Positions 19,385 through 34,429 of a stretch of DNA of 64,000 nt are shown here, piece by piece. The position numbers were made by a program, and so were the translations under genes. Every line of letters begins with the position of its first letter. The first letter of the stretch is position 1. The stretch is taken from the NCBI GenBank assembly GCA_017482055.1, contig JAFUOH010000017.1, positions 12,067 through 76,066 on the forward strand, given 5' to 3'. A model generated the notes under the pieces. That model searched no databases. It was not told the DNA's origin and saw nothing but the letters and a program-made list of their open reading frames with translations. The DNA comes from Clostridia bacterium (GTDB taxonomy: Bacteria > Bacillota > Clostridia > Oscillospirales > CAG-272).

Positions 19385-19920
19385 TGACTACAAATATTCT
19401 GCTTGCGGGCTTCGGCGGACAGGGCATCCTTTTCGCAGGCAAGGCTATCGCAAAAATGGCAATGGATTCCGAGCTTCAGGTATCCTGGCTCCCTTCCTAC
19501 GGTCCCGAAATGCGCGGCGGTGCGGCTAACTGCTCAGTTATCGTATCGGACGAGGAGATCGGTTCTCCCCTGGTTGTAACTCCCGACCTGCTCATCGCGC
19601 TGAATCTCCCTTCCTTTGAGAAGTTTGAACCGAATGTAAAAGCAGGCGGCAAGCTGGTCTACGACTCTTCCCTTATCGACAAAACTTCAAGCAGATCCGA
19701 TATTGAGGTCTACGGCATCCCCGCAACTGCTATGGCATCCGATGCGGGACTTACCGGTATGGCAAATGTTATCGTACTCGGCTATCTTCTGAAGATTACA
19801 GGTCTTTTTGAGTACGACGCGTTCCTTGAACATATGGTAGCGGGCATTCCCGCTGCTAAGGCAGCGCTTATCGAAAAGAATAAGAAAGCGCTTGAGATGG
19901 GCTACAATTACGCGAAATAA
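19384..19920 (+). CDS. 2-oxoacid:ferredoxin oxidoreductase gamma subunit
   Basis: [19 protein letters not shown]. Confidence 0.92.
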
Positions 19921-19933
19921 GCGATGTATTGAC

Positions 19934-20062
19934 AAAGATGCTGTCGCATTTAGCACATGTTCTGCATAAACATTCACAAAACATTGGGGCGACCACCGGT
20001 CGCCCCAACAAGTTTATTGTGAGTATTTATGTGATACATGCACTAAAAGCGACAGCATCTTT
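19934..20062. repeat. ~125-bp long-palindromic MITE/REPIN-like element, copy 1
   Basis: Imperfect palindrome over its whole length with core GGGGCGACC-ACC-GGTCGCCCC; homologous to 50221-50341. Confidence 0.8.
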
Positions 20063-20087
20063 TGCTTTTAATATAGTTAATTACCGC

Positions 20088-22370
20088 TTATCTCCGATAC
20101 CACCATGCTACGATAATACCCACAATCAGTACAAGCGCGCATACACCAAGCATGATCCAGGTTGAAGCCGTGTTTGCAGGCAGCCCTTGTGTCTGCCCCG
20201 ACATGTTGCCGAGATCTGGCACCTGCATATTGTTTTGCACTTCACCACGCCCGTTAAATCCGCCCTGATTTTCACTCTGTGACATGTCTCCGCGCTGAGG
20301 GAAGGTATTCTGCCTATCACTCTGTGCGGTATCCGTCGAATCGGTATTATCGCTCACCTCGGCTGTATCTGCCGGCACCACTGTTTCGTTAGGGATCATT
20401 GCCGCGGGATCGAAATTTTCGGGTATTCCCGACGGAATCGAACCACCTTCGGGCATTCCCGGGGGCACATTGCCGCCTTGCATATTATCACCCTGCATAC
20501 CGCCAAAGCCCATGTCACCGCTCGGCATACCTCTGCCGTCAGTCTGAGTGTCGGCGGTTGGTATAAAGGAGGTCTGTGTAGTACCCGCACCACTCTCCGC
20601 GGTATCGGGCATACTGCTTTCACCGCCGCGATTCGGACGCGTCATACCGCCGTTGGAATTTCCGCGGTCCTCACCGAACATATTTCCGCCTCTGCCGCCG
20701 CCAATGCCATTATTCATGGTGCCCATGTCGGATATATTCAATCCGGTCGTATCAACAAGAGTGCTGCTGTCTGCAGATTGCCCCTCGGAGGTAGAAGGAA
20801 TGGAACCGTCAAGCTGTCCCGAAACACTCTCGGCACGCTTCAGGCAAAATTCCTTTATCGCCGCCGCGCCCGTTTCAAACTCCTCAAAAGTGCAGAATTT
20901 TGACGGATCCTTTTCTACATAAGGCTTGATAAGCTCATATGTCTCGTCAATTACGCTTTCAAGATAGCCGTTTTCAAAGAATTGATTAATGAATTCTTCA
21001 AAATACGTGTGATACAGCTCGGTGTAAGCCTCATCATTAAATATCCACGCCACCATCGGACGGTCGGACATATCTCCGGACACGGGAGAATCAATGGGAT
21101 CATTCACCGCGCTCGATGCGTTACTGCCCTGAAATGTGCCATAGGCAAGGTTATAGTCCCAAGGCAGCATTGACATTTTGCCATCCTCTTCATATAGGTA
21201 ATAGTTGTGGATCATTGTTCCCGTGTAGCTGTCACCATTGACCACGAAATTGTGTACTACAAAGTAGCGAATGACATTTTCGACATCCACGGCGCTCTCG
21301 ATATTTTCGCCTTCGGAAAGAATCTTAAGCGAATTTATAAGCCGCGCGGCATCTGCTTCGGTGTAATCGGTCTTGGCGCTGCTGAAAATGTTTGAGTAGC
21401 TGTCGGGATCGTCGTCGATATACTGAAGCTTAACGTCACTGCTGCCCATTCCGCCGCCGAATCCCCCCATTCCGCCACGGTTGCCGCCCATATTGCCGAT
21501 AAATTCCTCAATCTCAGCCATATCGACAGACGATGGGTCAAAATTCTCGGGCATAGCGAAGCCGCCCTCGGTATTATTACCGTCGCCGGGCATCGCTGCA
21601 GACGGGTCAAAGTCATCCGGCATAGTGAAGCCGCCACGTGATGGTACGGTGATCTCCTCAGCAGTATCTCCCGTCTCATTTCCATTAAAATCGAACTCAA
21701 AATCGCTCATGGAAAAGTCTCTGCCGTTGCCACGACCGCCTCCGAAGGACATACTGTCGGGCTTATACAGCTCTCCATGGTCACTGCCGTAGTTGCGCTG
21801 AAGGAAGGAATCCTCCACAGCTTCGACTGCGAGATACAATCCCCAATCCTCGCCGTTTACCGTAATGTAAGCAAAGCTGCACAGCGGAGCCGCCGCACCG
21901 AACTCGTACATCATACGGTATACGAGGTAATCCTTCATAAAGGTGTTGTCCTGTATTATGTTATTAAGGCTCAGCTTGTCAAGCCCGTGATAGCTTTTGG
22001 TGCTGTCATACTGATCAAACTCGATCTTGAAGCTGTATCGGTCGCTGTTCATACTCGATACATTTGAAAGCGAGGTGTTGCCCTTAGCGCGTATACCGAT
22101 ATTTTTATACACTTCTCCGTCGATCACCGCGCTGCACACGGAATATTCCTCATTCTCGCAGGTCTCGATAAAGCTGTCCCAATCATCCATTACGATGTCT
22201 ATGGTGTGTACGCGTGATGCGTCAAACAGCCTGTTCTCATAGCCGATCACACGAGCCGCCGCTTCAATACCGAGTGCCGCACCGTTCATGAACAGCACTG
22301 TCACGATAAGTGTCAGCGCTATAGCAGCGAAGCAGAGCTTATCTATATGCTTATGTGTTGACATTGGCAC
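20088..22370 (-). CDS. CotH-family atypical kinase; extracellular, with N- and C-terminal hydrophobic anchors
   Basis: GIRAKGNTS, SFKIEFD, KLSLNN, GLYLAVE, LYKP, DSY..HNYYLY, PWDYNLAYG; Gly/Met-rich low-complexity inserts; C-terminal TM followed by RR. Confidence 0.88.
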   Translation of the reverse strand: MPMSTHKHIDKLCFAAIALTLIVTVLFMNGAALGIEAAARVIGYENRLFDASRVHTIDIVMDDWDSFIETCENEEYSVCSAVIDGEVYKNIGIRAKGNTSLSNVSSMNSDRYSFKIEFDQYDSTKSYHGLDKLSLNNIIQDNTFMKDYLVYRMMYEFGAAAPLCSFAYITVNGEDWGLYLAVEAVEDSFLQRNYGSDHGELYKPDSMSFGGGRGNGRDFSMSDFEFDFNGNETGDTAEEITVPSRGGFTMPDDFDPSAAMPGDGNNTEGGFAMPENFDPSSVDMAEIEEFIGNMGGNRGGMGGFGGGMGSSDVKLQYIDDDPDSYSNIFSSAKTDYTEADAARLINSLKILSEGENIESAVDVENVIRYFVVHNFVVNGDSYTGTMIHNYYLYEEDGKMSMLPWDYNLAYGTFQGSNASSAVNDPIDSPVSGDMSDRPMVAWIFNDEAYTELYHTYFEEFINQFFENGYLESVIDETYELIKPYVEKDPSKFCTFEEFETGAAAIKEFCLKRAESVSGQLDGSIPSTSEGQSADSSTLVDTTGLNISDMGTMNNGIGGGRGGNMFGEDRGNSNGGMTRPNRGGESSMPDTAESGAGTTQTSFIPTADTQTDGRGMPSGDMGFGGMQGDNMQGGNVPPGMPEGGSIPSGIPENFDPAAMIPNETVVPADTAEVSDNTDSTDTAQSDRQNTFPQRGDMSQSENQGGFNGRGEVQNNMQVPDLGNMSGQTQGLPANTASTWIMLGVCALVLIVGIIVAWWYRR

Positions 22371-22374
22371 AACC

Positions 22375-23046
22375 TCAGTTCATGTAGTCGCCGTTGTAGC
22401 TGACAAGTACCGCGCTCTCAACGCCTTTCATCTCGGCAAGCTCATTTATAAAGTCGGTGTTGTCATCCTTCAGACGAATCTCCATATTAAGCTCAATCAT
22501 GCCCTTCTGTGCGCTCTTGGTCTTTGTAACGGCGCGCAGTGTGTTCTTGATAAGATATTCCTTAGCCGCAGTCTCGCTTGCGTGGTCGGCACAGCGAATG
22601 ACTACGATGTAGGGATTTACATGGGACTTTTTATTAACAAATACAAGCAGGATAACGCCGATGACCACACTGCCGATCACTGCAAGCGGTATCATACCTG
22701 CCGCCAGTACAATTCCCGCTGCAATGGACCAGAACAGGAACGCAATATCAAGCGGTTCCTTTATAGCGGTACGGAAACGCACGATGGACAGCGCACCGAC
22801 CATACCCAGAGAAAGCACTACATTGCTGGTAACCGCCAAAATAACGACCGTGGTGATCATGGTAAGCGCCACTAAAGTAACTCCGAAGCTCGACGAGTAC
22901 ATAACACCGGTGTATGTCTTTTTGTATACAAGGAAAATAAACAGTCCGATGCCAAATGCCAACACAATGGCAAGCAGCATATCAAGCAAGGTAACACTTG
23001 AGATGTTCTCAAGGAAGGATGATTTGAAAATATCGTTAAAATTCAT
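22375..23046 (-). CDS. DUF4956-family membrane protein
   Basis: SNVVLSLGMVGALSIVRFRTAIKEPLD; several TM helices plus a small C-terminal alpha/beta domain. Confidence 0.88.
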   Translation of the reverse strand: MNFNDIFKSSFLENISSVTLLDMLLAIVLAFGIGLFIFLVYKKTYTGVMYSSSFGVTLVALTMITTVVILAVTSNVVLSLGMVGALSIVRFRTAIKEPLDIAFLFWSIAAGIVLAAGMIPLAVIGSVVIGVILLVFVNKKSHVNPYIVVIRCADHASETAAKEYLIKNTLRAVTKTKSAQKGMIELNMEIRLKDDNTDFINELAEMKGVESAVLVSYNGDYMN

Positions 23047-23069
23047 TGTTTTGCTCCTTTATATAAATA

Positions 23070-23741
23070 TTAATCGTATTCACGGCATGCGGCATATTTT
23101 GAAAACGCGCCCGCACGGCGATCTTCAAGCCCCACCGCATCTCTTATGATCGACGGGAGGTATTCGTCCCATTTTACCTCTAAGATGATGGGCGAGCCCT
23201 TCACAGGGACTGTCGGCAGATCGGGGGCAAGCAAATCTACAGATGATAGTCCGGTTCTGATATCATAATCGAGAGTCACGCGGACATTTCCGGGGGCATA
23301 TACAAACGGCTCTCGTGTGTAGTCCACGATCGTTCGCGCACGGAGTCCCTGAGTCCGCATTTTTGCATACAGCTCCCGCACCAACGGATGACTGTGTGAA
23401 TACATAAAGTCTATGTCTCCCGCAGCGATCATGCGCGCTTCATCGGCACTTATCTGCGCGGACTGCTTGTTGCCAAGACCATTCTGCTTGCTCTTTTTTT
23501 CAAGATGTATCAAAGACGTGTCATCATTGTAATACCGAATGCGGAATTTTTCGCGGCTGTTGACGCCGTCAAGCTTTTCCCTGAGCGCACGGTCGGTAGG
23601 CGTATCAAAATACAGACTGCGTATCTTATATTTTCCGTCTATGGCGTGTGGGTCAAGTTGTCCCACAGCACGCATCCGCGAACGTATCGTGAGCATATCC
23701 GCAAAGCTTATCTCATGCTTGTGCTCATGGCGAAAATCCAA
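23070..23741 (-). CDS. VTC (polyphosphate polymerase-like, CYTH/TTM) domain protein
   Basis: RHEHK (ExK), SLYFD, KFRIRYY, LEKK, YTREP, RVTLD, ILEVK, FSKY; TTG start after AAGGAG. Confidence 0.88.
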   Translation of the reverse strand: MDFRHEHKHEISFADMLTIRSRMRAVGQLDPHAIDGKYKIRSLYFDTPTDRALREKLDGVNSREKFRIRYYNDDTSLIHLEKKSKQNGLGNKQSAQISADEARMIAAGDIDFMYSHSHPLVRELYAKMRTQGLRARTIVDYTREPFVYAPGNVRVTLDYDIRTGLSSVDLLAPDLPTVPVKGSPIILEVKWDEYLPSIIRDAVGLEDRRAGAFSKYAACREYD

Positions 23742-23800
23742 CTTCTACTTACTCCTTTCATAATTTTTTACGAGCGCTTTACGCTCGCATCACATGCGAT

Positions 23801-23834
23801 ATTGTACCATTTGTTACTGAAAAGGCGCTGAAAA
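23801..23834 (-). promoter_or_regulatory. Promoter of the VTC operon with an OmpR-type direct repeat
   Basis: Minus strand reads TTTTCAG-cgcc-TTTTCAG-N10-TACAAT. Confidence 0.75.
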
Positions 23835-23884
23835 ACCTCCCGAAATATTGTAAAGAAACTGTTAATGCAAAAAACTTCACAGTT

Positions 23885-23918
23885 TTTTCAGCCTGTTTTC
23901 AGAAATACATTGTACAAT
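23885..23918 (+). promoter_or_regulatory. Promoter of the two-component operon with the same direct repeat
   Basis: TTTTCAG-cctg-TTTTCAG-N10-TACAAT. Confidence 0.75.
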
Positions 23919-23958
23919 ATAAGTGTAACACATATTGATATTTTAAGAAGGTATATAT

Positions 23959-24636
23959 ATGCGCATACTTATCATTGAGGACGAAAAACTGCTGGCTGAA
24001 TCGCTTAAAACGCTGCTTGAATCCAAAGGCTTTGAGGTTGAACTCGCGCTTGACGGCGAGATGGGAAAGGAATACGCCGAGCTTGGCATATACGATCTTT
24101 TGATACTTGATGTCATGATGCCGAAGCTCGACGGATATCAGGTAGCTCGTCAAGTAAGAGCAGAACGTATAACCACGCCCATACTTATGCTCACTGCGAA
24201 ATCAGATGTAGAGGATAAGATCATGGGACTCAACGCGGGCGCGGACTACTATCTCACCAAGCCTTTTGATTCCCGCGAGCTGCTTGCCTGCATAAACGCT
24301 CTCCTGCGCCGTCAAGGCGATCAGATAAATGAGCTGTGTCTTGGCAACACTACTCTCGATCTTGACACCTGCACTCTGATATGCGGCGCAAAAAACGTGC
24401 GGCTGTCTGCAAAGGAGTTTGACATGATGCGATTTTTGCTTGGCGCAAAAAAGCGCATAGTTTCAAAGGAGACGATCCTCGCAAGGGTATGGGGTTACGA
24501 TTCAAATGCGGTAGAAAATCATGTGGAGGTCTACATTGGCTTTCTTCGCAAAAAGCTGCAGAGCATAGGCTCAAACATAACCATTGAAGCCATAAGACGG
24601 CTCGGTTATCATCTTGAGGTGAAGGACGAATGTTAA
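23959..24636 (+). CDS. OmpR/PhoB-family response regulator
   Basis: IEDE, LILDVMMP, LTAK, KPF, winged-helix C-terminus (VEVYIGFLRKKL, RRLGY). Confidence 0.95.
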   Translation: MRILIIEDEKLLAESLKTLLESKGFEVELALDGEMGKEYAELGIYDLLILDVMMPKLDGYQVARQVRAERITTPILMLTAKSDVEDKIMGLNAGADYYLTKPFDSRELLACINALLRRQGDQINELCLGNTTLDLDTCTLICGAKNVRLSAKEFDMMRFLLGAKKRIVSKETILARVWGYDSNAVENHVEVYIGFLRKKLQSIGSNITIEAIRRLGYHLEVKDEC

Positions 24637-25847
24637 AAAAGCTGCGTTTCAGGTTCATATGTATTACGATGACCATAGTCACCGTAATGCTTGCTGTCAT
24701 ACTCGGTATGATAGTGGGTTTCACCAAAAATAATTTAAGGGAACAGAGCATCAGCATGATGCAGGCGGTATCAAACTCCCCCATGAGGCCGATTATGGCA
24801 GACAAAGGACGTGATCGTGCGCCCTTTGTAAATCTTCCATACTTTACGGTGGAAAAACTGCCAAACGGGGAGTTGATGGCAAGCGGAAGCGATGAATATC
24901 ATGATCTTACAGACAATGAATATCTCACTGAGCTTATGAGCACCGTCAGTGCCTCGGACGAGCAGATCGGGACCATAAAAAAATATGCGCTGCGCTACAG
25001 CAAGGTCTCTAACCCAATCTCCGAGCGAGTAGTATTTACCGATATATCAAGCGAGCTCGCGGCAGTAAGCTCACTGACGCGTACCTGTGTTTTCATAGGC
25101 ATCTTGGCGTTTGCCGTGTTCCTTCTACTCACACTGCTGCTTGTCAGATGGGTGACCCGTCCCGTTGAGACTGCATGGAAGCAGCAGCGGCAGTTTGTGG
25201 CGGATGCTTCACATGAGTTGAAAACGCCGTTGACGGTTATCATGACAAATGCAGAGCTGCTTTCCGAGAACAGCTCAAGTGAAGCCGTGCGCACACGCTC
25301 CGCTTACAGTATTCTTGAAATGTCAAAGCGCATGCGAGGACTGACGGAAGAGCTGTTGGAGCTTGCAAGAATCGACAATGGCACAGCAAAAATGGTATTT
25401 GAGTCGGTAAACCTGTCGGACATTGTCGAAAATGCCATTCTGCCGTTTGAAGCCATGTTTTTTGAACGATCGCTGACCCTTGACACAGCCATAGAAAAGG
25501 ATATATATGTAAACGGCAGCGGCTCACATCTGCGGCAGGTCATCGACATTCTGCTCGATAACGCTCAAAAATATGCCCACTCCGGCGGTAAAGTAAAAGT
25601 GATACTGTCACGTTCGGGACATTTCGCCTGTACGCTCAGCGTATCAAACACCGGTGACGAGATACCAAAGGATGAGCTCCGTGATATATTCAAGCGCTTC
25701 TACCGCGCCGACAAATCCCGCACCGACGGTCACAGCTACGGTCTCGGTCTATCCATCGCAGAAGGCATCGTTCGCGAGCACAGAGGAAAGATCTGGGTGG
25801 AAAGCCGCGATGGGATAAACAAGTTTTCGGTTTATCTTCCTCTATAA
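24630..25847 (+). CDS. Membrane sensor histidine kinase
   Basis: Two TM helices, H-box DASHELKTPL, ILLDNA, FKRFYR, GLGLSI. Confidence 0.95.
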   Translation: MLKKLRFRFICITMTIVTVMLAVILGMIVGFTKNNLREQSISMMQAVSNSPMRPIMADKGRDRAPFVNLPYFTVEKLPNGELMASGSDEYHDLTDNEYLTELMSTVSASDEQIGTIKKYALRYSKVSNPISERVVFTDISSELAAVSSLTRTCVFIGILAFAVFLLLTLLLVRWVTRPVETAWKQQRQFVADASHELKTPLTVIMTNAELLSENSSSEAVRTRSAYSILEMSKRMRGLTEELLELARIDNGTAKMVFESVNLSDIVENAILPFEAMFFERSLTLDTAIEKDIYVNGSGSHLRQVIDILLDNAQKYAHSGGKVKVILSRSGHFACTLSVSNTGDEIPKDELRDIFKRFYRADKSRTDGHSYGLGLSIAEGIVREHRGKIWVESRDGINKFSVYLPL

Positions 25848-25892
25848 ACAAAACGAGACCGCCCATACCGATCGGTACGGACGGTCTTACTT

Positions 25893-26087
25893 TTAGTGGC
25901 AGGTGCCGTTTTCGCAGCCGGACTTCTTAACGAAGGATTCGCAGTCAACGCACTGGCAAACGGTAGGGTTTGCTTCATGGGTGGCAATGCGTACCTTATT
26001 GAGCGTGCAGTAATTTTCGTTGCCGCAGTGATACTCGCACTGCTTTACGGAACATTCGATGGAGGGATTGGGAGACTTGTTTTCCAT
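25893..26087 (-). CDS. Small Cys-rich DUF1540-like protein
   Basis: IECSVKQCEYH...YC...VDCESF pattern; AGGATGG upstream. Confidence 0.75.
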   Translation of the reverse strand: MENKSPNPSIECSVKQCEYHCGNENYCTLNKVRIATHEANPTVCQCVDCESFVKKSGCENGTCH

Positions 26088-26174
26088 TATAAAATACCAT
26101 CCTAACTTGATAATATGGAGGTCGGTGTCATAACCGACTTCGATATTATTCTGTACCGCTTCAAAGTCGTTTAA

Positions 26175-27080
26175 TCAGGTATTTTTTGACAATTTCGAGA
26201 GTATGCACCGTTCTCTTAAAAGAGCCGCCACACCGTCAAGGGCGCTTCGACAGATACCAAGCGGCTCGGTAATGATCTGCGGCATCATTTCCGCATCTAA
26301 GCCTGACATGGCAAGCCGTGCGTGTAATTCTTCCGATATAACGTCACAATCATCCTCATGCTCACAAGATACATGTACCGTCTCGGGATCAATGACTGCA
26401 CATAAATTCGAAAGAAGCGATATAAGCGACTCGCGGGAATCTGCTGCCCGCGCGAAATCGCCCGCCTTGCCGTGAGCACCGCTGTACAGTCTGCCGCTAA
26501 ACGTAACGGCACCGTCAACGCTTCCATCGGAGCCAAGGCGTACCAACAGCGCCACACCGCTCGTATCGAGTCTTGCGGAATTAGCGGCGGCATATGCACG
26601 GCTTTCTTCAATGATCAGCTCGGGAGCGTGCCCGAGCGCCTCCGTAAAACCTTTTGCATATTCGGCAGCATCATTGCCCGCCGTCACGCATCCGATCCCA
26701 AGCAGCTCACCACCGAAGGCTTCAATAAAATGAGCGAATCCCGATAGTGCCAGTGATGTGATCTCTGTCTCTTCGGTCTCGTATTCGCTTCGTATATTCA
26801 GCGCAAGATCACATACACGCACGCGGCGCTTGACCCCGGTCAGATCATACAACAGCATACCGCAGTTATCAGTAAGCGAGCATATACCGCTTTTACGTCC
26901 CACCGAGCCGCGGGACTGCTTGTGCTCGGTAAGTATGCCGCAGGAGCAAAGCAGCTCCACTGCCTTGCCTACCGTCACCTGACTGAAGCCCGTCATACTC
27001 GAAAGCTGTGCACGGCTTATCTCTCCACACCGCGCCACTGTTTCAAACACCGCCATTACACTGCTTTGCTCGTTTTGCAT
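26175..27080 (-). CDS. ROK-family-like transcriptional regulator (HTH plus degenerate ROK domain)
   Basis: ISRAQLSSMTGFSQVTV HTH, VGRK, GRLYSGAHGKAGDF, IDPETV; ATG at 27080 after GAGGAG. Confidence 0.7.
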   Translation of the reverse strand: MQNEQSSVMAVFETVARCGEISRAQLSSMTGFSQVTVGKAVELLCSCGILTEHKQSRGSVGRKSGICSLTDNCGMLLYDLTGVKRRVRVCDLALNIRSEYETEETEITSLALSGFAHFIEAFGGELLGIGCVTAGNDAAEYAKGFTEALGHAPELIIEESRAYAAANSARLDTSGVALLVRLGSDGSVDGAVTFSGRLYSGAHGKAGDFARAADSRESLISLLSNLCAVIDPETVHVSCEHEDDCDVISEELHARLAMSGLDAEMMPQIITEPLGICRSALDGVAALLRERCILSKLSKNT

Positions 27081-27333
27081 GATGCTCCTCCCGACAAAGA
27101 AAAATTTTGATATTAAAATTATACATGAATTTTCGATTTTTGTCAATATCCCTGTCGAATGAAGGCTTGTGCAGCCGATTTATGTGTTTCAATTTGGGTT
27201 TGGCTATAAATTATTTACAATCCGTCAATAGTCAGTATCAAATTTGATGGTAAAATATTTAACTGATAAAGTGTTCAGCATAGTGTGTGCCGAAATGACA
27301 TAAAACGACATTACGAAAGGAAATTGCTTCATA

Positions 27334-28347
27334 ATGAATTCAAGTACACGCCGCGCGCGTATAATTTCTACGGGCTCATATATCCCGGAGCGGGTGCTTT
27401 CAAATGACGATCTTTCACGTATGGTGGAAACAGACGACGAATGGATCCGCGAGCGCACAGGTATCGGTGAACGCCGTATAAACACCTCAATGAAGAATCA
27501 TGAGATGGCTGTGATCGCCGCAAAACGAGCTTTGGAAGCAAGCGGGCTTTCCCCTCTCGATATTGATCTTGTGATCGCTTCAACCGTTACCAATGATAAC
27601 TACACCCCCGCTCTTGCCTGCCATGTACAGGCGGGTGTCGGCGCCAAAAACGCCTTCGCTTTTGATATAAACGCCGGCTGTTCGGGCTTTGTATATGCTC
27701 TTGACACCGCATCGGCGTTCATCTCGGCGAGCCGTCCCGGAACAAGACAGGTGAACAATGTGCTCATCGTTTGCTCCGAAGTATTGTCGCGAATTACAGA
27801 TTATACCGATCGAACCTCCTGTGTATTGTTCGGTGATGGTGCAGGTGCGGCGGTTGTATGCGCCGACAGTGAACACGGACTTCTTTCATCTTATATTAAG
27901 ACCGACGGCACAGGCGCCGACAGCATCACGGCTCCCGCATTGACTTCCGTTATAGCGAATGATGACGGTACCATCGAAAACAACCCCGACAAAATCACCG
28001 AGGGTCTGAAAATGAACGGCAGAAAGGTTTTCACATTCGCTGTCAAAGCAATTCCCGAAGCGCTCTCAGAAGCACTCAAGGCAGCAGATGTTACTGCAGA
28101 TGAGCTTAAATACGTAATAATGCACCAGGCAAATATACGAATAATCAATTCCGCGGTCGAGCGCCTCGGTATTGATCCCGAAAAAGCCCCCGTCAATATT
28201 GAGCGATACGGAAACACCTCAAGCGCCAGCGTTCCGATACTCCTTGATGAGCTCAATCGCGCAGGAAAATTACAGCGCGGTGACAAGCTCGCCATTGAGG
28301 GCTTCGGTTCGGGACTGACCTACGGTGCCGCAATAATCGAGTGGTAA
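27334..28347 (+). CDS. fabH: Beta-ketoacyl-ACP synthase III
   Basis: WIRERTGI, AGCSGF, FGDGAGA, HQANIRII, YGNTSSAS. Confidence 0.95.
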   Translation: MNSSTRRARIISTGSYIPERVLSNDDLSRMVETDDEWIRERTGIGERRINTSMKNHEMAVIAAKRALEASGLSPLDIDLVIASTVTNDNYTPALACHVQAGVGAKNAFAFDINAGCSGFVYALDTASAFISASRPGTRQVNNVLIVCSEVLSRITDYTDRTSCVLFGDGAGAAVVCADSEHGLLSSYIKTDGTGADSITAPALTSVIANDDGTIENNPDKITEGLKMNGRKVFTFAVKAIPEALSEALKAADVTADELKYVIMHQANIRIINSAVERLGIDPEKAPVNIERYGNTSSASVPILLDELNRAGKLQRGDKLAIEGFGSGLTYGAAIIEW

Positions 28348-28361
28348 CAAGGAGATAAAAA

Positions 28362-29108
28362 ATGTCAAATAAAACTGTAATCGTCACCGGTGCCGCAAAG
28401 GGCATCGGTCTGGCGATAGCCTGCGGTTTTGCCGCAAGGGGCTATAATATAGCCCTGAATTATCGTTCCGATAACGGCACACAGTGTGCTGCGCTTGAAG
28501 CCTGCCGCGCTGCCGCCAAGGACGGTGCCGAGGTTGAGCTGTTCCGCGCCGACGTGTCAAAAGCGGATGAGTGCAAAGCCATGGTCGAAGCTGTAATTGC
28601 ACGCTTCGGAGGTATATGGGCACTTGTCAACAATGCGGGCATCACCCGCGACGGTCTGCTCATGCGCATGAGCGAAGAACAGTTTGACGAGGTCATTGCA
28701 TGTAACTTAAAATCTGTCTATAATATGTCAAAGGCGGTCACGCCCGTTATGACAAAGGCGCGCGCAGGACGCATCATCAGTATCACAAGCGTGGTAGGTA
28801 TCTACGGCAACGCAGGTCAGACCAACTATGCCGCATCCAAGGCAGCGATCATCGGATTCACGAAATCTCTTGCCAAGGAGATCGGCAGCCGCGGCATCAC
28901 CGTCAACTGTATTGCTCCCGGCTTTATCGAGACCGACATGACCGATGCGCTGGGTGAAGATGCAAAAAAGGCACTGTACGACCGCATCGCTCTTCGCCGT
29001 ATAGGCAAGCCCGAGGATATTGCAAACGCCGCGGCATTCCTTGCAAGCGAGGATGCCTCCTACATCACTGCGCAGACCCTCTCGGTCGACGGCGCGATAA
29101 GTCTTTAA
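28362..29108 (+). CDS. fabG: 3-oxoacyl-ACP reductase
   Basis: TGAAKGIG, NNAGITRD, NYAASK, APGFIETDMT. Confidence 0.95.
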   Translation: MSNKTVIVTGAAKGIGLAIACGFAARGYNIALNYRSDNGTQCAALEACRAAAKDGAEVELFRADVSKADECKAMVEAVIARFGGIWALVNNAGITRDGLLMRMSEEQFDEVIACNLKSVYNMSKAVTPVMTKARAGRIISITSVVGIYGNAGQTNYAASKAAIIGFTKSLAKEIGSRGITVNCIAPGFIETDMTDALGEDAKKALYDRIALRRIGKPEDIANAAAFLASEDASYITAQTLSVDGAISL

Positions 29109-29175
29109 TAATATAGCGTATTATTGGGTCGAGCATCGCTCGTCCGAATATCATAAAACGAAAGGATACAAACCA

Positions 29176-30411
29176 ATGCGAGTTGTTATTACAGGTATGG
29201 GTGCCATCACCCCCGCGGGAAAGACTCCCGACGAGCTTTTTGAGCGCGCACTTTCGGGCGTGACCACTGTTTCCGAGATCACAGCCTTTGATACATCCGA
29301 TTATAAATGCCACTTTGCCTGCGAGGTGAAGGATTTCGATCCCACCTCTTATGGTATTGATGCCAAGGCAGCACGCCGCATGGATCGCTATTGTCAGTTT
29401 GCAATGGCAGCCGCCACCGACGCATATGACATATCGGGACTCGAACGCGATAAGCTTGACATCACACGCTGCGGTGTCATTTTCGGAAGCGGTATCGGAG
29501 GACTCGGCACCCTTGAAGAAGAGCATACCAAGCTGATGGAAAAAGGCCCCGGCAGAGTTTCCCCCGTATTCATCCCCATGATGATTTCAAACATTGCCTG
29601 CGGAAATATTGCGATGAAATATGGCTTCAAGGGCACCTGCTACGCTACAGTTACTGCGTGCGCGTCCAGTGCAACCGCTATAGGCGAGGCATTCCGTCAC
29701 ATCAAGGACGGATACGCCGATGTAGTCATCGCGGGCGGCTCTGAGGCAACAATAACCAAGCTGGCAGTTGCAGGTTTTTCCAACATGACCGCACTCACTC
29801 ACGGCGAGACTCCCGACACCTGCTCCCTGCCCTTCGATAAGAGAAGAAGCGGCTTTACAATGGGCGAAGGCGGCGCGGCACTGGTGCTTGAAGCTTATGA
29901 TCACGCAGTCGCTCGCGGTGCGAAGATCTACGGTGAGATCATCGGATACGGTACCACAAGCGACGCATATCATATCACCGCCCCCGATCCCGAAGCATCG
30001 GGCGCGACCCTCGCAATGAGCGGGGCTATCAAAGAGGGCGGCATCACTCCCGAAATGGTAGATTACATCAACGCGCACGGTACAGGTACGGCACACAACG
30101 ACTCCTCCGAGACTCTTGCTGTCAAGAAAACTCTGGGTGAAGCGGCATACAAGGTCGCAATTTCCTCCACCAAGGGTGTTACAGGCCACCTTTTAGGTGC
30201 GGCAGGTGCAACCGAGGCGATCATCACAGCCATGGCGCTTGATCGCGGCATAATACCGCCTACAGCCAACCTGCGCGAGCCCGATCCTGAGCTTGATCTT
30301 GACTATACTCCCCTTGAACCGAAAAAGCGCAACATCAAATACGCGCTGTCCAACTCCCTCGGATTTGGCGGCACAAATGTCTCACTGCTCTTTAAGAAAT
30401 TCGAGGCGTAA
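29176..30411 (+). CDS. fabF: Beta-ketoacyl-ACP synthase II
   Basis: TACASS, HGTGT, GHLLGAAG, SNSLGFGG. Confidence 0.95.
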   Translation: MRVVITGMGAITPAGKTPDELFERALSGVTTVSEITAFDTSDYKCHFACEVKDFDPTSYGIDAKAARRMDRYCQFAMAAATDAYDISGLERDKLDITRCGVIFGSGIGGLGTLEEEHTKLMEKGPGRVSPVFIPMMISNIACGNIAMKYGFKGTCYATVTACASSATAIGEAFRHIKDGYADVVIAGGSEATITKLAVAGFSNMTALTHGETPDTCSLPFDKRRSGFTMGEGGAALVLEAYDHAVARGAKIYGEIIGYGTTSDAYHITAPDPEASGATLAMSGAIKEGGITPEMVDYINAHGTGTAHNDSSETLAVKKTLGEAAYKVAISSTKGVTGHLLGAAGATEAIITAMALDRGIIPPTANLREPDPELDLDYTPLEPKKRNIKYALSNSLGFGGTNVSLLFKKFEA

Positions 30412-30427
30412 GAAAGGAAAGCAAGCC

Positions 30428-30910
30428 ATGTTTAACAATGTAAACGAAATAGAAGCACTTATCTGCCGCCTTATGGATAAGCTTGATGCAAGCAAGACCG
30501 ACAGCCTGGAGCTTGAGGTTGCAGATGTTAAAATAAAGCTTGGCAAGCACACTCCGCCCCCCTGTGAGCCACATCACGGCGCGCCCTCACCACAGCCCGC
30601 TATGATGCCTGCGGTGCCTGTAAGCGCTCCCGCTGCTCCGCAGATCGCCCCGGAAGCGGCTTCTGCGTCTGCGCCTGCCGCAACGGTCAACGCGCCGTTG
30701 CTCGGTGTAGCTTATGCCGCATCCTCTCCGGAAGCCGAGCCCTTTATTAAAGTGGGCGATAAGGTTAAAAAGGGAGATATCATCTGCATAATCGAAGCCA
30801 TGAAGGTCATGAACGAGATCGAATCCGATAAGGACGGCGAGGTCACCGAAATACTGTTCGAAAACGGAAAAATGGTTGAATTCGGTCAGCCGTTGATTTC
30901 CGTAAAGTGA
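30428..30910 (+). CDS. accB: Acetyl-CoA carboxylase biotin carboxyl carrier protein
   Basis: EAMKVMNEI biotinylation motif and Ala/Pro linker; ATG at 30428. Confidence 0.93.
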   Translation: MFNNVNEIEALICRLMDKLDASKTDSLELEVADVKIKLGKHTPPPCEPHHGAPSPQPAMMPAVPVSAPAAPQIAPEAASASAPAATVNAPLLGVAYAASSPEAEPFIKVGDKVKKGDIICIIEAMKVMNEIESDKDGEVTEILFENGKMVEFGQPLISVK

Positions 30911-30917
30911 GGCTGTA

Positions 30918-31343
30918 ATGATACTTGATAAAGACGGGATCAAAGCTATCCTTCCCCACCGCGAGCCGTTTTTGCTCATCGACGAGGTAACCGAGCTTAT
31001 TGACGGCAAGTCCGCCACTGCAAAATGGACTCTCACGGGCAACGAATATTTCTTTAAAGGTCACTTCCCGGACACGCCCGTACTTCCGGGCGTACTGATG
31101 CTTGAATCCATCGCACAGTGCGGCGCAGTCGTAATACTGGGACTTCCCGAAAACCGCGGCAAGATTGCATTCTTCGCCGGGGCGGACAATGTAAAATTCA
31201 AGCGCAAGGTAGTTCCCGGCGACACGTTGGAGCTTCACTGTGAGCTGATAAAATCCCGCTTCGGCATGGCGATCGCTCAGGGTACCGCCACGGTAAACGG
31301 CGAGCTTGCATGCTCGGCGGAAATAAAGTGCATGGTTCAGTGA
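30918..31343 (+). CDS. fabZ: 3-hydroxyacyl-ACP dehydratase
   Basis: LPHREPFLLID, FFKGHFP, PGVLMLE. Confidence 0.95.
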   Translation: MILDKDGIKAILPHREPFLLIDEVTELIDGKSATAKWTLTGNEYFFKGHFPDTPVLPGVLMLESIAQCGAVVILGLPENRGKIAFFAGADNVKFKRKVVPGDTLELHCELIKSRFGMAIAQGTATVNGELACSAEIKCMVQ

Positions 31344-31353
31344 GGGAACTGAT

Positions 31354-32712
31354 ATGTTCAGAAAAATATTGATCGCCAACCGCGGTGAGATCGCTGTCCG
31401 CGTGATACGCGCCTGCCGTGACATGGGCATTATCAGTGTTGCAGTCTATTCCGAGGCTGACCGCGAGTCACTGCATACGCTTATCGCGGACGAAGCCGTC
31501 TGCATCGGTGGGGCATATTCACGTGACAGCTATCTAAACATGAACGCTATCATCACCGCCGCCAAGCTGACAGGCTCGGAGGCTATACACCCCGGATACG
31601 GATTCCTGTCCGAAAACAGCCGTTTCGCACGGCTCTGCGAGGAAAACGGTATTGAGTTCATCGGTCCCTCGGCTCACTCCATCGAGCTTGTGGGCGACAA
31701 AGCAGAGGCTCGCCGTACCGTTGCGGCGGCAGGAGTGCCGATAGTCCCCGGAAGCAAGGGCATCGTCACCGATATCACAGCCGCCGAGGAGATCGCCGAA
31801 AAAATCGGTTATCCCGTAATGATCAAAGCCGCAAACGGCGGCGGAGGTAAGGGTATCCGCATGGTAAGCGATAAAACCGAGCTCTCACGCGCTTTTGATG
31901 CGGCAAGGAGCGAAGCCGCCGCCAATTTCGGCGACGACGGCGTTTACATCGAAAAATTCATCCGCGACCCGCATCACATTGAGTTCCAAATACTTGCAGA
32001 CAAGCACGGTAACGCCATTCATTTAATGGAACGTGACTGTTCAATGCAGCGCCGTCACCAAAAGGTGCTTGAGGAGACCCCCTCGGCATTTGTGACACCC
32101 GAGCTGAGGGAACGCATGGGCAAGGCATCCGTTGCAGCCGCGCTCGCCGCAGGCTACCATGGTGCCGGCACCGTGGAGTATCTTGTTGATGCCGACCGCA
32201 ACTTCTATTTTATGGAGATGAATGCCCGCATACAGGTGGAGCATCCCGTGACCGAGGTACTGACAGGCGTTGACCTTGTACGTGCGCAAATAGACATCGC
32301 GGCAGGTAAAAAGCTGAAATTCGAGCAGCCCGATATAGTTCCCCGCGGTCACGTTATCGAGTGCCGCATCAACGCAGAGGATCCCGCGCGCGGATTCGCG
32401 CCCTGTCCCGGCAAGATAACCAGCCTGAATGTTCCCGGTGGACTTGGAGTGCGTGTGGATACTGCAGTATACCAGGGGTACACAGTACCGCCGTATTATG
32501 ATTCCATGATTGCCAAGCTCATCGTAAACGGCAGTCACCGCGAGGAAGCGATAACGCGCATGCGTCGAGCGCTTGCCGAGTTTATCATCGACGGCATCGG
32601 GTCTAATATTGATTTTCAGTTGGCTCTGACCGACTGCAAAGAATTCCGTTTGGGGAATTACACCAATTCATTTCTTGACGATACTGACATTACCAAGCTT
32701 ACTCACGAATGA
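31354..32712 (+). CDS. accC: Biotin carboxylase
   Basis: IANRGEIA, HPGYGFLSEN, GGGGKG, MNARIQVEHPVTE, RINAEDP. Confidence 0.95.
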   Translation: MFRKILIANRGEIAVRVIRACRDMGIISVAVYSEADRESLHTLIADEAVCIGGAYSRDSYLNMNAIITAAKLTGSEAIHPGYGFLSENSRFARLCEENGIEFIGPSAHSIELVGDKAEARRTVAAAGVPIVPGSKGIVTDITAAEEIAEKIGYPVMIKAANGGGGKGIRMVSDKTELSRAFDAARSEAAANFGDDGVYIEKFIRDPHHIEFQILADKHGNAIHLMERDCSMQRRHQKVLEETPSAFVTPELRERMGKASVAAALAAGYHGAGTVEYLVDADRNFYFMEMNARIQVEHPVTEVLTGVDLVRAQIDIAAGKKLKFEQPDIVPRGHVIECRINAEDPARGFAPCPGKITSLNVPGGLGVRVDTAVYQGYTVPPYYDSMIAKLIVNGSHREEAITRMRRALAEFIIDGIGSNIDFQLALTDCKEFRLGNYTNSFLDDTDITKLTHE

Positions 32713-32723
32713 GGTGAAACACA

Positions 32724-33614
32724 TTGAGCGAACTGTTTAAGGACTTATTTAAAAAAGCACAATACATCACGATCCCAGATTCCATCAAAAACCTCCCCGA
32801 CTCAAAAAAGAAGTCGAAGGAGGAGGTGTCAAGCGAACCAAAGATCGTCTGCACCAAGTGCAAAAAAGAGGTAGCGCCCGATAAATACGCGGTGGCGCTC
32901 AGAGTCTGTCCGCACTGCGGAGCTCATGCAAGGCTGAACGCTCGTGATCGAATCGCCATGACCGTAGATGAGGGCAGCTTCGAAGAGCTCTTCTCCGAGA
33001 TCACCTCCGCCAATCCCCTTGAGTTTGAAGGATACACCGAAAAGGTAGAAAAGCTGCGGTCGCAGACTCGCCTCAACGAGGCTGTGGTCACAGGGCGTGC
33101 CAGGATACACGGTGAGGCGTGTATGCTCGCTGTAATGGACTCTACCTTTATGATGGCATCCATGGGCAGTGCGGTGGGCGAGAAGCTCACACGACTGTTT
33201 GAGGCGGCTACGGTGGAACGGCTTCCTGTAGTGATCTTCACCGCTTCGGGAGGTGCGAGAATGCATGAGGGCACGCTTTCACTTATGCAGATGGCAAAGG
33301 TCAGCGCCGCCGTTGGACTCCACAGCGACGCGGGGTTGCTTTACATCACAGTCCTCTGCGACCCCACCACCGGCGGAGTTGTAGCGAGCTTCGCAATGCT
33401 CGGCGATGTTATTCTCTCCGAGCCGAAAGCCCTCATAGGCTTTGCGGGACGACGCGTTATCGAGGGCACTATAGGCAAAAAGCTGCCCGAGGATTTCCAA
33501 AGCGCGGAATTTCAGCTTGAGCACGGTTTTGTGGATGCGATAGTTCCACGTGCTGAGCTTCCCGAGAAGATAGCGCTTATAATTGGTTTATCGAAAGGCG
33601 GTGAGGCACGATGA
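32724..33614 (+). CDS. accD: Acetyl-CoA carboxyltransferase beta subunit
   Basis: Zn finger CTKC/CPHC, SGGARMHEG, PTTGGV. Confidence 0.93.
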   Translation: MSELFKDLFKKAQYITIPDSIKNLPDSKKKSKEEVSSEPKIVCTKCKKEVAPDKYAVALRVCPHCGAHARLNARDRIAMTVDEGSFEELFSEITSANPLEFEGYTEKVEKLRSQTRLNEAVVTGRARIHGEACMLAVMDSTFMMASMGSAVGEKLTRLFEAATVERLPVVIFTASGGARMHEGTLSLMQMAKVSAAVGLHSDAGLLYITVLCDPTTGGVVASFAMLGDVILSEPKALIGFAGRRVIEGTIGKKLPEDFQSAEFQLEHGFVDAIVPRAELPEKIALIIGLSKGGEAR

Positions 33615-34429
33615 GTGAAAAGCAAACTGTTGATGCGCTGACCAAATTCACCCTGTCGCGCCACAAAGATCGCCCGGGGGTACGCGATTATGTCTCCCAC
33701 ATCTTCACAGATGTGCTGGAGCTTCACGGTGACCGTTCCTTCGGTGACGATCCCGCCATGTATACCGCCATAGCCAGACTTGAAGGCATTCCTGTGACAG
33801 TTATCGGTCATGTCAAGGGGCACACAGTACAAGCTAATATCGCTTCAAACTTCGGAATGGCACATCCCGAGGGATATCGCAAGGCAATGCGCCAGATGAA
33901 GCAGGCGGAAAAGTTCGGACGTCCGATAATCACCTTTGTAGACACCCCCGGCGCGGACTGCGGCGTAGGTGCGGAGGAGCGCGGACAAGGTCTTGCAATC
34001 GCCGAAAATCTTCGTGACATGATGGGGCTGAGGGTGCCGATAATCAGCACTGTGATCGGTGAGGGCGGCTCAGGCGGCGCGCTGGGTATCGCCTGTGCGA
34101 ATCGCGTTCTGATGCTTGAAAATGCGACCTACTCGGTCATATCTCCCAGAGGCTTTGCCAGCATACTGTGGAAGGATCCCACCCGCGAAAAAGAAGCAGC
34201 GCAGACACTGCGCATGACAGCGGATGATCTTTTGGCTCTCGGAATCATAGATGAGGTCATTCCCGAGCCCGAGGGCGGTGCACATCTCGACCATATTGCC
34301 GCCGCAGATGTGTTAAAAGTAAATATTTTGAAAAATTTATCAGACCTACTTGAAAAAGACAAAGAAATGATATATAATGAGAGATACGAGAAGTTCCGAA
34401 AGATGGGACAGTACAAGATCATCGAGTAA
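33611..34429 (+). CDS. accA: Acetyl-CoA carboxyltransferase alpha subunit
   Basis: LHGDR, PEGYRKA, DTPGA, GEGGSGGAL. Confidence 0.93.
   Translation: MSEKQTVDALTKFTLSRHKDRPGVRDYVSHIFTDVLELHGDRSFGDDPAMYTAIARLEGIPVTVIGHVKGHTVQANIASNFGMAHPEGYRKAMRQMKQAEKFGRPIITFVDTPGADCGVGAEERGQGLAIAENLRDMMGLRVPIISTVIGEGGSGGALGIACANRVLMLENATYSVISPRGFASILWKDPTREKEAAQTLRMTADDLLALGIIDEVIPEPEGGAHLDHIAAADVLKVNILKNLSDLLEKDKEMIYNERYEKFRKMGQYKIIE

Follow-up and report, generated by a model that had tools for sequence, protein, structure and literature searches.

Introduction

To our knowledge, bacterial polyphosphate has been attributed almost wholly to PPK1 and PPK2. In eukaryotes the polymer is made by the VTC complex, in which polyphosphate synthesis is reported to be coupled to translocation (PMC4641920), and a 2026 preprint describes polyphosphate released outside the cells of the Bacillus cereus group even by a mutant devoid of both PPKs, through an uncharacterised pathway, in organisms that according to the authors have no VTC4 homologue (PMC13484657). 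Here we describe an operon for a VTC-domain protein, a DUF4956 membrane protein and a CotH protein, divergent from a two-component system, in a 64-kb window from a Clostridia bacterium genome (the window being the whole stretch of DNA analysed, 64,000 nucleotides). The VTC and DUF4956 genes of this operon form a near-obligate pair, the gene that follows them is interchangeable between loci, and the VTC-DUF4956 module is a concrete candidate for a second bacterial polyphosphate route, in lineages other than the Bacillus cereus group.

The gene set itself is already in print. The families cotH, poly-phosphate polymerase, DUF4956 and DUF4832 have been described as accessory genes contiguous with pel operons, the pel-contiguous triad being reported from streptococci, clostridia and bifidobacteria (Whitfield et al., bioRxiv 10.1101/768473), and the same gene set is listed in NELoc-2 of Clostridium perfringens. 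In Streptococcus intermedius, SIR_1592-1594 are described as a predicted secreted CotH with catalytic residues, a Vtc4-like tunnel protein and an MgtC-like transmembrane (TM) protein with an ACT domain, in an arrangement that the study twice states was not found outside pel loci (mBio 2025, PMC12345266); the preprint version of the same study proposes that the polymer stays in the cytoplasm. The original prediction for this locus, made from the DNA letters, knew of no functional description of the neighbourhood, which holds for its biochemistry but not for its genetics: the gene set had been reported beside pel, and deletion phenotypes exist for two of the three genes. What would be new is a candidate bacterial variant of the VTC polymerase-translocase idea, without pel.

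Results and Discussion

VTC and DUF4956 Behave as One Genetic Unit

The operon and the two-component genes beside it comprise the following features.

23070..23741, minus strand: VTC gene, 223 aa, TTG start, first gene of the operon (Pfam PF09359, E 2.3e-36)
22375..23046, minus strand: DUF4956 gene, 223 aa (Pfam PF16316, E 1.9e-11)
20088..22370, minus strand: CotH gene, 760 aa (Pfam CotH PF08757, E 6.9e-65, 220 bits, matched in two stretches)
23742..23958, no strand assigned: divergent promoter region between VTC and the response regulator, 217 bp, from sequence reading
23959..24636, plus strand: OmpR/PhoB-type response regulator gene, 225 aa (Response_reg 3.1e-29, Trans_reg_C 2.3e-18)
24630..25847, plus strand: sensor histidine kinase gene, 405 aa (Pfam HisKA and HATPase_c)

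The gaps inside the operon, read in the order VTC, DUF4956, CotH, are 23 bp and then 4 bp, and the response regulator and kinase genes overlap by 7 bp. The tight three-gene operon divergent from an OmpR-type regulator-kinase pair that had been predicted is thus found with all five genes in place.

The distribution of these families was examined in a census of the same evenly drawn 200-201 genomes of the window's class, searched family by family. VTC is present in 101/200 of these genomes and DUF4956 in 97/201; all 97 are also VTC-positive, and the four genomes with VTC only carry partial VTC matches. A DUF4956 match lies within 1 kb of 114 of the 130 VTC matches, downstream and on the same strand in 113 of these cases, and, counted from the other side, 115 of 123 DUF4956 matches have VTC within 1 kb. 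VTC and DUF4956 are supported as a near-obligate pair that behaves as one genetic unit, and the proposal that this neighbourhood recurs across genomes is borne out by the same co-occurrence counts.

An alignment scan with DUF4956, restricted to one genome per species, recovered at least 590 relatives. The 80 closest loci share 75-85% identity and belong to gut or rumen Clostridia, among them Oscillospiraceae, Lachnospiraceae, Ruminococcus and Butyrivibrio; VTC precedes DUF4956 in 79 of them, the exceptional locus beginning 243 bp before DUF4956. Among 14 control genomes both families match in the same three, namely Bacteroides thetaiotaomicron, Corynebacterium glutamicum and Methanosarcina acetivorans. 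A tblastn search of plasmids with VTC returned 4 records, all from Gram-positive lineages (Bacillota, Actinomycetota).

PPK1 was matched in 52/200 class genomes, 34 of which are VTC-positive, leaving 67 of the 101 VTC-positive genomes with no PPK1 match. VTC is therefore often the sole candidate of the two polymerases tested (VTC and PPK1), and its occurrence both with and without PPK1 indicates that it is neither a mere back-up of PPK1 nor excluded by it.

Fusion proteins were considered as Rosetta-stone evidence for interaction and were set aside as deletions or as assembly or gene-calling artefacts. The search yielded 14 longer proteins, which include VTC joined to DUF4956 (P0001 and P0005, one member each) and VTC joined to CotH (P0002, P0003, P0011, P0012 and P0013); in P0001, P0002, P0003, P0005 and P0012 the VTC part stops short of its C-terminal S-K-Y motif, and the partner domain fused to it is missing its N-terminal portion. 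P0002 represents 39 member sequences, so that one or more of these junctions may exist in a real population.

The Third Gene Is Interchangeable and Predicted to Be Surface-Tethered

The gene that follows the pair is of two unrelated kinds, or is missing. CotH occurs in 78/200 class genomes, where the 150 matches listed out of 169 resolve into 133 genes, 55 of them within 5 kb of VTC or DUF4956, and the Cthe_2159 family occurs in 69/200. Among the 114 pairs, a partner within 5 kb is CotH in 51 cases and Cthe_2159 in 35, with both in 0 and neither in 28. This count drew on the 65 of 150 listed CotH matches that share a contig with VTC or DUF4956 and on 79 main Cthe_2159 matches, weaker fragments having been dropped; the CotH figure of 51 is identical when all 150 listed matches are used. 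The 28 pairs without a partner are an upper bound, as several stand at contig ends, including one (L114) with a CotH fragment at the end of its contig. In the 80 closest loci the next gene is CotH in 61 and Cthe_2159 in 18, with one locus cut off.

On a quick maximum-likelihood tree of concatenated VTC and DUF4956 from 95 close loci, the partner type switches at least 8 times, in comparison with 16-18 switches in the five shuffles printed out of 200 run. The window's own genome carries a second VTC-DUF4956 pair (contig C18, 106291-112613), with 27% and 25% identity to the window pair, and this one is followed by a Cthe_2159 gene (PF14262, E 1.5e-94) whose product starts with a lipoprotein-like signal and is rich in Gly and Phe at its C-terminus; the next gene encodes an 820-aa DUF5722 protein.

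Despite their different folds, the two partners share a common design. An N-terminal hydrophobic segment is found in 53/55 complete CotH genes and 14/14 complete Cthe_2159 genes; 37/55 and 10/14, respectively, encode a TM helix at the C-terminus, with a Gly midway along it and a K/R tail behind it; and a Gly/Met/Phe-rich stretch is frequent in both. These features support the prediction that the third gene, when present, encodes an extracytoplasmic, membrane-tethered protein.

Ten downstream open reading frames (ORFs) from 8 partnerless loci encode regulators, UppS, ABC components or a phosphotransferase, or have no Pfam match. Partnerless pairs followed by unrelated genes of this sort indicate that the VTC-DUF4956 pair can stand alone and, together with the partner swapping, that CotH is an exchangeable accessory to a VTC-DUF4956 core that suffices by itself. 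A narrow version of the original prediction, in which a polyphosphate-driven CotH kinase was the point of the module, has evidence against it: 35 pairs carry the non-kinase Cthe_2159, the partner has changed at least eight times, and 28/114 pairs have neither partner. In three genomes of one genus (L121, L122 and L123), the partnerless pair is followed directly by an undecaprenyl-diphosphate synthase gene.

The CotH Partner Retains Its Catalytic Core

The CotH protein of the window matches B. cereus CotH (5jd9, E 1e-13). Its predicted DSY/HN/WD core is intact as D380-S381-Y382, H388-N389 and W404-D405, with D380, N389 and D405 invariant in 17/17 orthologues. D380 and D405 align with the aspartates of the N-F-D and P-W-D motifs of 5jd9, which stand 23 residues apart like D228 and D251, the numbering being deduced from that spacing; mutation of D228 and D251 is reported to inactivate B. 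subtilis CotH (10.1101/469122). Judged by these residues, the protein looks active, as a catalytically intact kinase.

A Gly/Asp-rich insertion of ∼100 aa, itself poorly conserved, splits the CotH domain after profile position 110, and a disordered tail of ∼200 aa follows the domain. All 17 split-type CotH genes in the class sample (17/17) lie less than 800 bp from a VTC or DUF4956 match. Residues ∼205-315 and 560-730 contain repeated G-G-F-x-M-P-(D/E)-x-F-D-P-S-like motifs and R-G-G-M-G-G-F-G-G-G runs, and Gly/Met/Phe-rich runs of a similar kind end the unrelated Cthe_2159 partners.

Two hydrophobic segments, at residues 12-30 and 732-750 (the latter followed by RR), are both present in 16/17 orthologues, which agrees with the expectation of a doubly anchored protein as far as the segments themselves are concerned. 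The first of them precedes A-A-A-R and may be cleaved off as a signal peptide, which would leave a type I membrane protein anchored at its C-terminus alone. A sortase-type signal at the C-terminus (L-P-A-N-T-A before the helix) was considered and rejected, as the motif does not recur in the printed orthologue tails.

The VTC Protein Resembles the Vtc4 Polymerase

The VTC protein matches the Pfam VTC model at 126 bits (cut-off 23) over profile positions 1-230 of 235, and has no Pfam CYTH match at E 0.01 or better. It is the tunnel domain alone (223 aa, Pfam), with neither an SPX domain nor a Vtc1-type TM domain. We aligned 18 orthologues and obtained Vtc4 numbering by counting along the printed alignment. 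The charged motifs that had been proposed as intact are invariant in 18/18 sequences (R4, E6, K8, R67, R69, E81, K83, K85, E188, K190 and S214-K215-Y216), as are Y44-F45-D46, K65, K92, R143, R154, T156 and D158.

Used singly, the VTC sequence gave only a chance match to PDB sequences, and the 18-orthologue profile was needed: it matches Vtc4 chains (E 1e-10) and maps K8 to K200, R67 to R264, R69 to R266, K83 to K281, E188 to E426 and K190 to K428. Work by Hothorn in 2009 is said to have established the importance of the Vtc4 tunnel residues K200, R264, R266, K281 and E426. K215, in the S214-K215-Y216 motif, fits by spacing only the position of K458, described as the catalytic lysine of Vtc4 (Martinez et al., 2015, PMC4641920). 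The AlphaFold2 (AF2) model of the protein is of high quality (pLDDT 92.4), and among the PDB matches listed by Foldseek the 11 best are all Vtc4, Vtc3 or Vtc2 chains (E 1.3e-11 to 1.2e-9, TMq 0.57-0.75), with other triphosphate tunnel metalloenzymes (TTMs), both hydrolases and cyclases, at E 2e-8 or worse.

These results make the protein a candidate polyphosphate polymerase, as a cytoplasmic Vtc4-like triphosphate-tunnel enzyme, and the conserved residues and modelled fold suggest that it probably does polymerise polyphosphate. Alternatively, the VTC protein could be a triphosphatase or a cyclase-like TTM that energises transport of something else by DUF4956 or makes a small phosphorylated product, in which case the polymerase name would be an annotation transfer. 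Such a possibility is illustrated by AtTTM3, whose tunnel centre is described as near-identical to that of Vtc4, yet which hydrolyses tripolyphosphate only; in the same account, hydrolytic TTMs carry an acidic patch of four glutamates that is replaced by basic residues in Vtc4 (PMC4641920). Three of the four patch positions could be placed by alignment in the bacterial protein: R4 and K190 are basic, like their Vtc4 counterparts, and E6, acidic, stands at the position of T198. Because E6, of the ExExK-type motif, is invariant here and lacking in Vtc4, hydrolysis or other chemistry keeps some standing, as it does from the lack of the SPX and TM domains of Vtc4. It has to be set against the two basic patch positions, the Pfam VTC score without a CYTH match, the exclusively Vtc nature of the best listed structural neighbours, and the match by spacing of K215 to K458, a residue that hardly matters for the hydrolase. 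On this evidence we consider such chemistry quite unlikely.

DUF4956 Is Predicted to Be a Five-Helix Membrane Protein With an ACT-Like Domain

In an alignment of 18 DUF4956 sequences the mean column identity is 61%, R90, F91 and R92 are invariant, and a near-invariant stretch reads T-S-N-V-V-L-S-L-G-M-V-G-A-L-S-I-V-R-F-R-T-A-I-K-E-P-L-D. The conserved segment SIVRFRTAIKEPLD is predicted to lie on the cytoplasmic face, and by the positive-inside rule K42/K43, R90/R92/K96 and K139/K140 are likewise predicted to be on the cytoplasmic side. The AF2 model (pLDDT 72.9) contains five long helices (residues 20-44, 52-71, 76-94, 98-115 and 119-137), in agreement with the multi-TM protein that had been predicted, and a C-terminal domain of beta-alpha-beta-beta-alpha-beta order; the positive-inside topology would place this ACT-like domain inside the cell.

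Structural searches were informative for the C-terminal domain only. Its nearest match is the MgtC C-terminal domain 2lqj (Foldseek E 1.5e-3; VIA Z 10.1, root-mean-square deviation 2.9, 83 aligned), tied with ACT domains, while fold searches with the TM part gave no informative partners and an ESM Atlas search with DUF4956 returned DUF4956 clusters only. The NCBIfam MgtC/SapB model PRK09977 scores 28 bits (cut-off 214), and Pfam MgtC is matched in 5/18 members, with a best E of 0.00099, and not in the window protein. Since these scores are far below the family cut-offs, DUF4956 is placed outside the MgtC/SapB family. Prediction of a DUF4956-VTC complex from 18-row alignments of each protein (score 0.00, mark 0.32) speaks neither for nor against binding.

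We regard DUF4956 as a candidate membrane partner or conduit of VTC. The likeness to MgtC, weak as it is by score, also opens a cytoplasmic and regulatory interpretation, in which the polymer (or the use of nucleoside triphosphate) stays inside the cell, the MgtC-like ACT domain of DUF4956 senses a metabolite and tunes VTC, the F-ATPase or the neighbouring PhoR-like kinase, and the exported protein is merely co-regulated in a phosphate or envelope response. ATP synthase and PhoR are reported targets of MgtC in Salmonella (cited in PMC12345266), and the S. intermedius authors' proposal of a cytoplasmic polymer points the same way, as do the 28/114 pairs with no exported neighbour. What this interpretation leaves unexplained is the consistent nature of the third gene, which where present is predicted to be extracytoplasmic and tethered, with the same anchor design in two unrelated folds, and its repeated swapping beside a constant pair; the low MgtC scores count against it as well. 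We consider it rather unlikely.

A Two-Component System Accompanies the Operon in One Lineage

The adjacent kinase has two hydrophobic segments around an extracytoplasmic loop of ∼115 aa (by sequence reading), followed by HisKA and HATPase_c. Neither protein can be equated with PhoB or PhoR: for the response regulator every NCBIfam equivalog falls below its cut-off (PhoB 172 bits vs 296), and for the kinase the best of the PhoR/PhoB equivalogs is PnpS at 163 bits (cut-off 400), so that only the general OmpR/HisKA class can be assigned.

The pair belongs to a lineage that accompanies the module. Nine close response-regulator orthologues (327-386 bits) all stand beside a VTC operon, and the sensor part of the kinase (aa 1-178), compared with 96 related loci, matches 24 ORFs that are all VTC-adjacent kinases, nine of them at E 1e-30 to 1e-40; the remaining kinases of these loci are not matched. 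More broadly, 34/66 loci have a two-component pair no further than 3 kb upstream of VTC (22 co-directional, 12 divergent), the 66 being those of the 80 closest loci with at least 2.3 kb of sequence upstream of VTC; by partner type, the pair is present in 29/49 CotH loci and 5/17 Cthe_2159 loci. Among 16 other split-type triads a regulator-kinase pair is found within ∼2 kb in 10, placed upstream, downstream or divergently. No two-component pair lies near the two genes of the class sample most closely related to the window CotH (L020 and L015), and the link is therefore a lineage trait and not a rule. A dedicated two-component system, as originally predicted, is accordingly seen for one lineage (24/24 sensor matches VTC-adjacent) and not for all copies of the module. 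For the regulatory interpretation of DUF4956 this finding cuts both ways: a PhoR/PhoB-like pair adjoins the module in about half of the loci, and half of the loci have none.

The divergent promoter region contains a candidate regulator box in two copies:

23817..23832, plus strand: direct repeat CTGAA-N6-CTGAA with an 11-bp period, candidate regulator box
23887..23902, minus strand: second direct repeat, inverted (TTCAG-N6-TTCAG on the plus strand)

OmpR/PhoB-type regulators usually bind 11-bp direct repeats. Searched on either strand, CTGAA-N6-CTGAA occurs in the 64-kb window in these two copies only, both in the promoter region, which itself (23742-23958) has no Rfam match. The 7-mer CTGAAAA is present in 9/9 orthologous divergent intergenic regions, and the nine share GCTGAA-N5-GCTGAAAA and its inverse. 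The repeat occurs 34 times in the 1.35 Mb of 93 related loci, and 24 of these occurrences are no more than 300 bp upstream of VTC, a density of 0.79 per kb there vs 0.0076 per kb elsewhere (∼100-fold); 18 of the 93 loci carry the repeat in that position. From this sequence pattern, binding of the CTGAA-N6-CTGAA repeat by the response regulator appears probable. One locus (L029, 7267-8310) carries an extra ∼1 kb between the regulator and VTC, with the conserved repeat present on either side of the insertion.

Relation to pel Loci and to Surface Glycans

PelG (PF16933) scores above cut-off in 7/200 class genomes. It stands alongside 5/51 CotH triads, a sixth pel locus being split over contigs, and is not adjacent in the other 46/51, which contradicts the printed claim of occurrence at pel loci only; the comparative counts given here thus correct that statement. 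On plasmid pNP95 of Pseudobutyrivibrio xylanivorans (L104, 5224-8363), the triad has the order CotH-VTC-DUF4956 and lies inside a cluster of GT2, GT4 and GT61 glycosyltransferases, acyltransferases and pyruvyl transferases.

Such neighbours raise the possibility that the module serves exopolysaccharide or cell-wall-polymer biogenesis, with CotH or Cthe_2159 acting on a glycan and not on proteins, a reading that overlaps with surface delivery of polyphosphate and differs in its acceptor. Contiguity with pel, both in print and in the five sampled triads, the pNP95 cluster, the description of Cthe_2159 by Pfam as a carbohydrate-binding domain protein, and the altered Pel levels reported on deletion of CotH and DUF4956 homologues are all compatible with a glycan role. 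The window itself provides little to match: no polysaccharide genes were found within 20 kb on either side of the module in a flank scan, no pel-type gene is among the 20 flanking ORFs scanned (9862-42160), and PelG has no match in the window's own genome (an assembly of 1.56 Mb that is 54% complete, with the window on contig C12). With 46 of the 51 triads having no adjacent PelG, we consider this reading improbable.

Two large surface proteins are encoded further along the window, one with InlB B-repeat-like domains and SLH (34826-37798, minus strand) and one with an esterase domain and SLH (40160-42160, plus strand). The two SLH proteins suggest that the organism probably anchors proteins to a secondary cell-wall polymer, and such a polymer is a possible acceptor for surface chemistry.

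Genomic Surroundings

The module is bounded by terminator-like hairpins:

19982..20010, no strand assigned: bidirectional terminator-like hairpin 3' of CotH, with 13 and 11 pairs on the two strands
25856..25887, listed on the minus strand: terminator-like hairpin directly 3' of the kinase gene, 14 pairs

By Pfam scan both flanks carry housekeeping functions, on the left subunits of a 2-oxoacid:ferredoxin oxidoreductase. The right flank begins with an ORF of no Pfam family and continues with fatty-acid synthesis and acetyl-CoA carboxylase genes (27334-34429, plus strand: FabH, FabG, FabF, biotin carrier, biotin carboxylase and carboxyltransferase subunits), apparently unrelated to the module. 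The first of these ORFs (26175-27146, minus strand, 323 aa) adjoins the kinase and has a perfect sigma-70-like promoter match at 27146-27118; it was considered as a sixth member of the module and rejected, having no Pfam match and no relative in 116 related loci. An Rfam scan of 19800-27400 gave two chance-level rows outside the promoter region and no riboswitch.

A Proposed Model of Polyphosphate Synthesis and Surface Delivery

The explanation that we favor, at slightly below even confidence for the whole, is a VTC-DUF4956 core for polyphosphate synthesis and export that is combined with a swappable surface user. The cytoplasmic VTC protein would polymerise polyphosphate from nucleoside triphosphate, working at the membrane with DUF4956, whose five TM helices, basic RFR..K segment on the inner face and cytoplasmic ACT-like domain would stand in place of the unrelated Vtc1-type TM channel of eukaryotes and pass the polymer to the outer face of the membrane. 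The surface-held third protein would be an interchangeable user of the polymer: CotH might bind it or take phosphoryl groups from it and thereby modify surface proteins or glycans, and in other copies the Cthe_2159 beta-helix protein would take the user role. The kinase, sensing extracytoplasmic conditions, and the OmpR-type regulator would switch on the operon and their own genes via the CTGAA-N6-CTGAA boxes. Surface delivery is the simplest mechanism to account at once for the likeness of the enzyme to Vtc4, for its obligate membrane partner with a conserved basic segment on the inner face, and for a third protein that lies outside the cytoplasm and has either of two folds. The parts of this model differ in strength: polymer export through DUF4956 is a tentative proposal, somewhat more doubtful than not, and polyphosphate as the phosphoryl donor of CotH is unlikely.

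Several observations weigh against the export model. DUF4956 has no detectable likeness to a Vtc1-type channel, its sole relatives with a described role are MgtC proteins, and these are reported to be regulators of the F-ATPase and PhoR and not channels (mBio 2025, PMC12345266). The invariant E6 of VTC, at a position where Vtc4 has Thr, is an acidic-patch residue of hydrolytic TTMs, and the literature searched contains no biochemical assay of any bacterial VTC-domain protein. No exported partner is found near 28/114 pairs, the genes downstream of partnerless loci are of unrelated kinds, and the closest CotH relatives of the window locus in the class sample do without the two-component pair. 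In S. intermedius, deletions of DUF4956 and of CotH are reported to shift Pel level and aggregation in opposite directions, and the VTC deletion mutant is reported still to aggregate, with no aggregation defect described (PMC12345266); these phenotypes do not fit a simple linear pathway.

The original prediction of a split synthase/translocase, formed by VTC and DUF4956 and serving CotH, is thus retained in part. The genetic unit, the Vtc4-like residues and model, the predicted tethered and extracytoplasmic third gene and the cognate two-component lineage all agree with it, and it is here recast as a core with an interchangeable partner.

If the pair does export polymer, this would also bear on the puzzle of what phosphoryl donor an exported CotH could draw on where ATP is scarce. 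The module is small, with two or three genes of ∼220 to 760 codons. In its broadest form, which we think unlikely, the proposal would give about half of the sampled gut and rumen Clostridia, as well as the three control species, a PPK-independent yeast-like polyphosphate synthase with its own membrane exporter, and swappable tethered proteins that use polyphosphate as an extracellular counterpart of ATP or as a surface polyanion; bacteria would then have a route for polyphosphate manufacture and export that also supplies energy for phosphorylation outside the cytoplasm.

Comparison With Known Systems

One of the closest described arrangements is the pel accessory set, in which the same three families are contiguous as in the window. 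There, the accessory genes lie downstream of pelDEADAFG and CotH carries an FN3 domain, whereas the window module has no pel contiguity, its CotH is instead interrupted by an internal insertion and anchored through a TM helix at the C-terminus, and the order VTC-DUF4956-CotH and the attached two-component system set it further apart.

Vtc1-type subunits have three helices. With the eukaryotic VTC complex (yeast Vtc4/Vtc3/Vtc1; 3g3q, 3g3r, 7ytj, 8i6v), the bacterial VTC shares the tunnel domain and the counterparts of K200, R264, R266, K281 and E426, as well as the presumed logic of a cytoplasmic polymerase at a membrane partner. It differs in having neither SPX nor a fused TM part, in carrying E6 in place of Vtc4 T198, and in a membrane partner that is a separate DUF4956 gene product (five helices and an ACT-like domain) and not of Vtc1 type; the bacterial set also adds an exported third gene and a two-component system. 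PPK1, for its part, presumably has the same product as VTC (polyphosphate from nucleoside triphosphate) and an unrelated fold.

The Bacillus CotH spore-coat Ser/Thr kinase (5jd9, 5jda) has in common with the window protein the Pfam CotH domain and two aligned aspartates. That kinase, of ∼360 aa, belongs to the spore coat and is produced in the mother cell, with ATP at hand, in contrast to the 760-aa window CotH, which is predicted to be exported and membrane-tethered, is split by a low-complexity insertion, and is encoded in an operon with VTC and DUF4956. MgtC/SapB proteins share with DUF4956 a build of several TM helices followed by a cytoplasmic ACT-like domain, and we know of no pairing of MgtC with a tunnel enzyme. 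The Cthe_2159 family (PF14262), finally, replaces CotH after VTC-DUF4956 in 35/114 pairs and 18/80 of the closest loci; its beta-helix fold is unrelated to kinases, it is absent from the window and present on contig C18 of the same genome, and it often has the same anchors and Gly/Met/Phe-rich tail as the CotH proteins whose place it takes.

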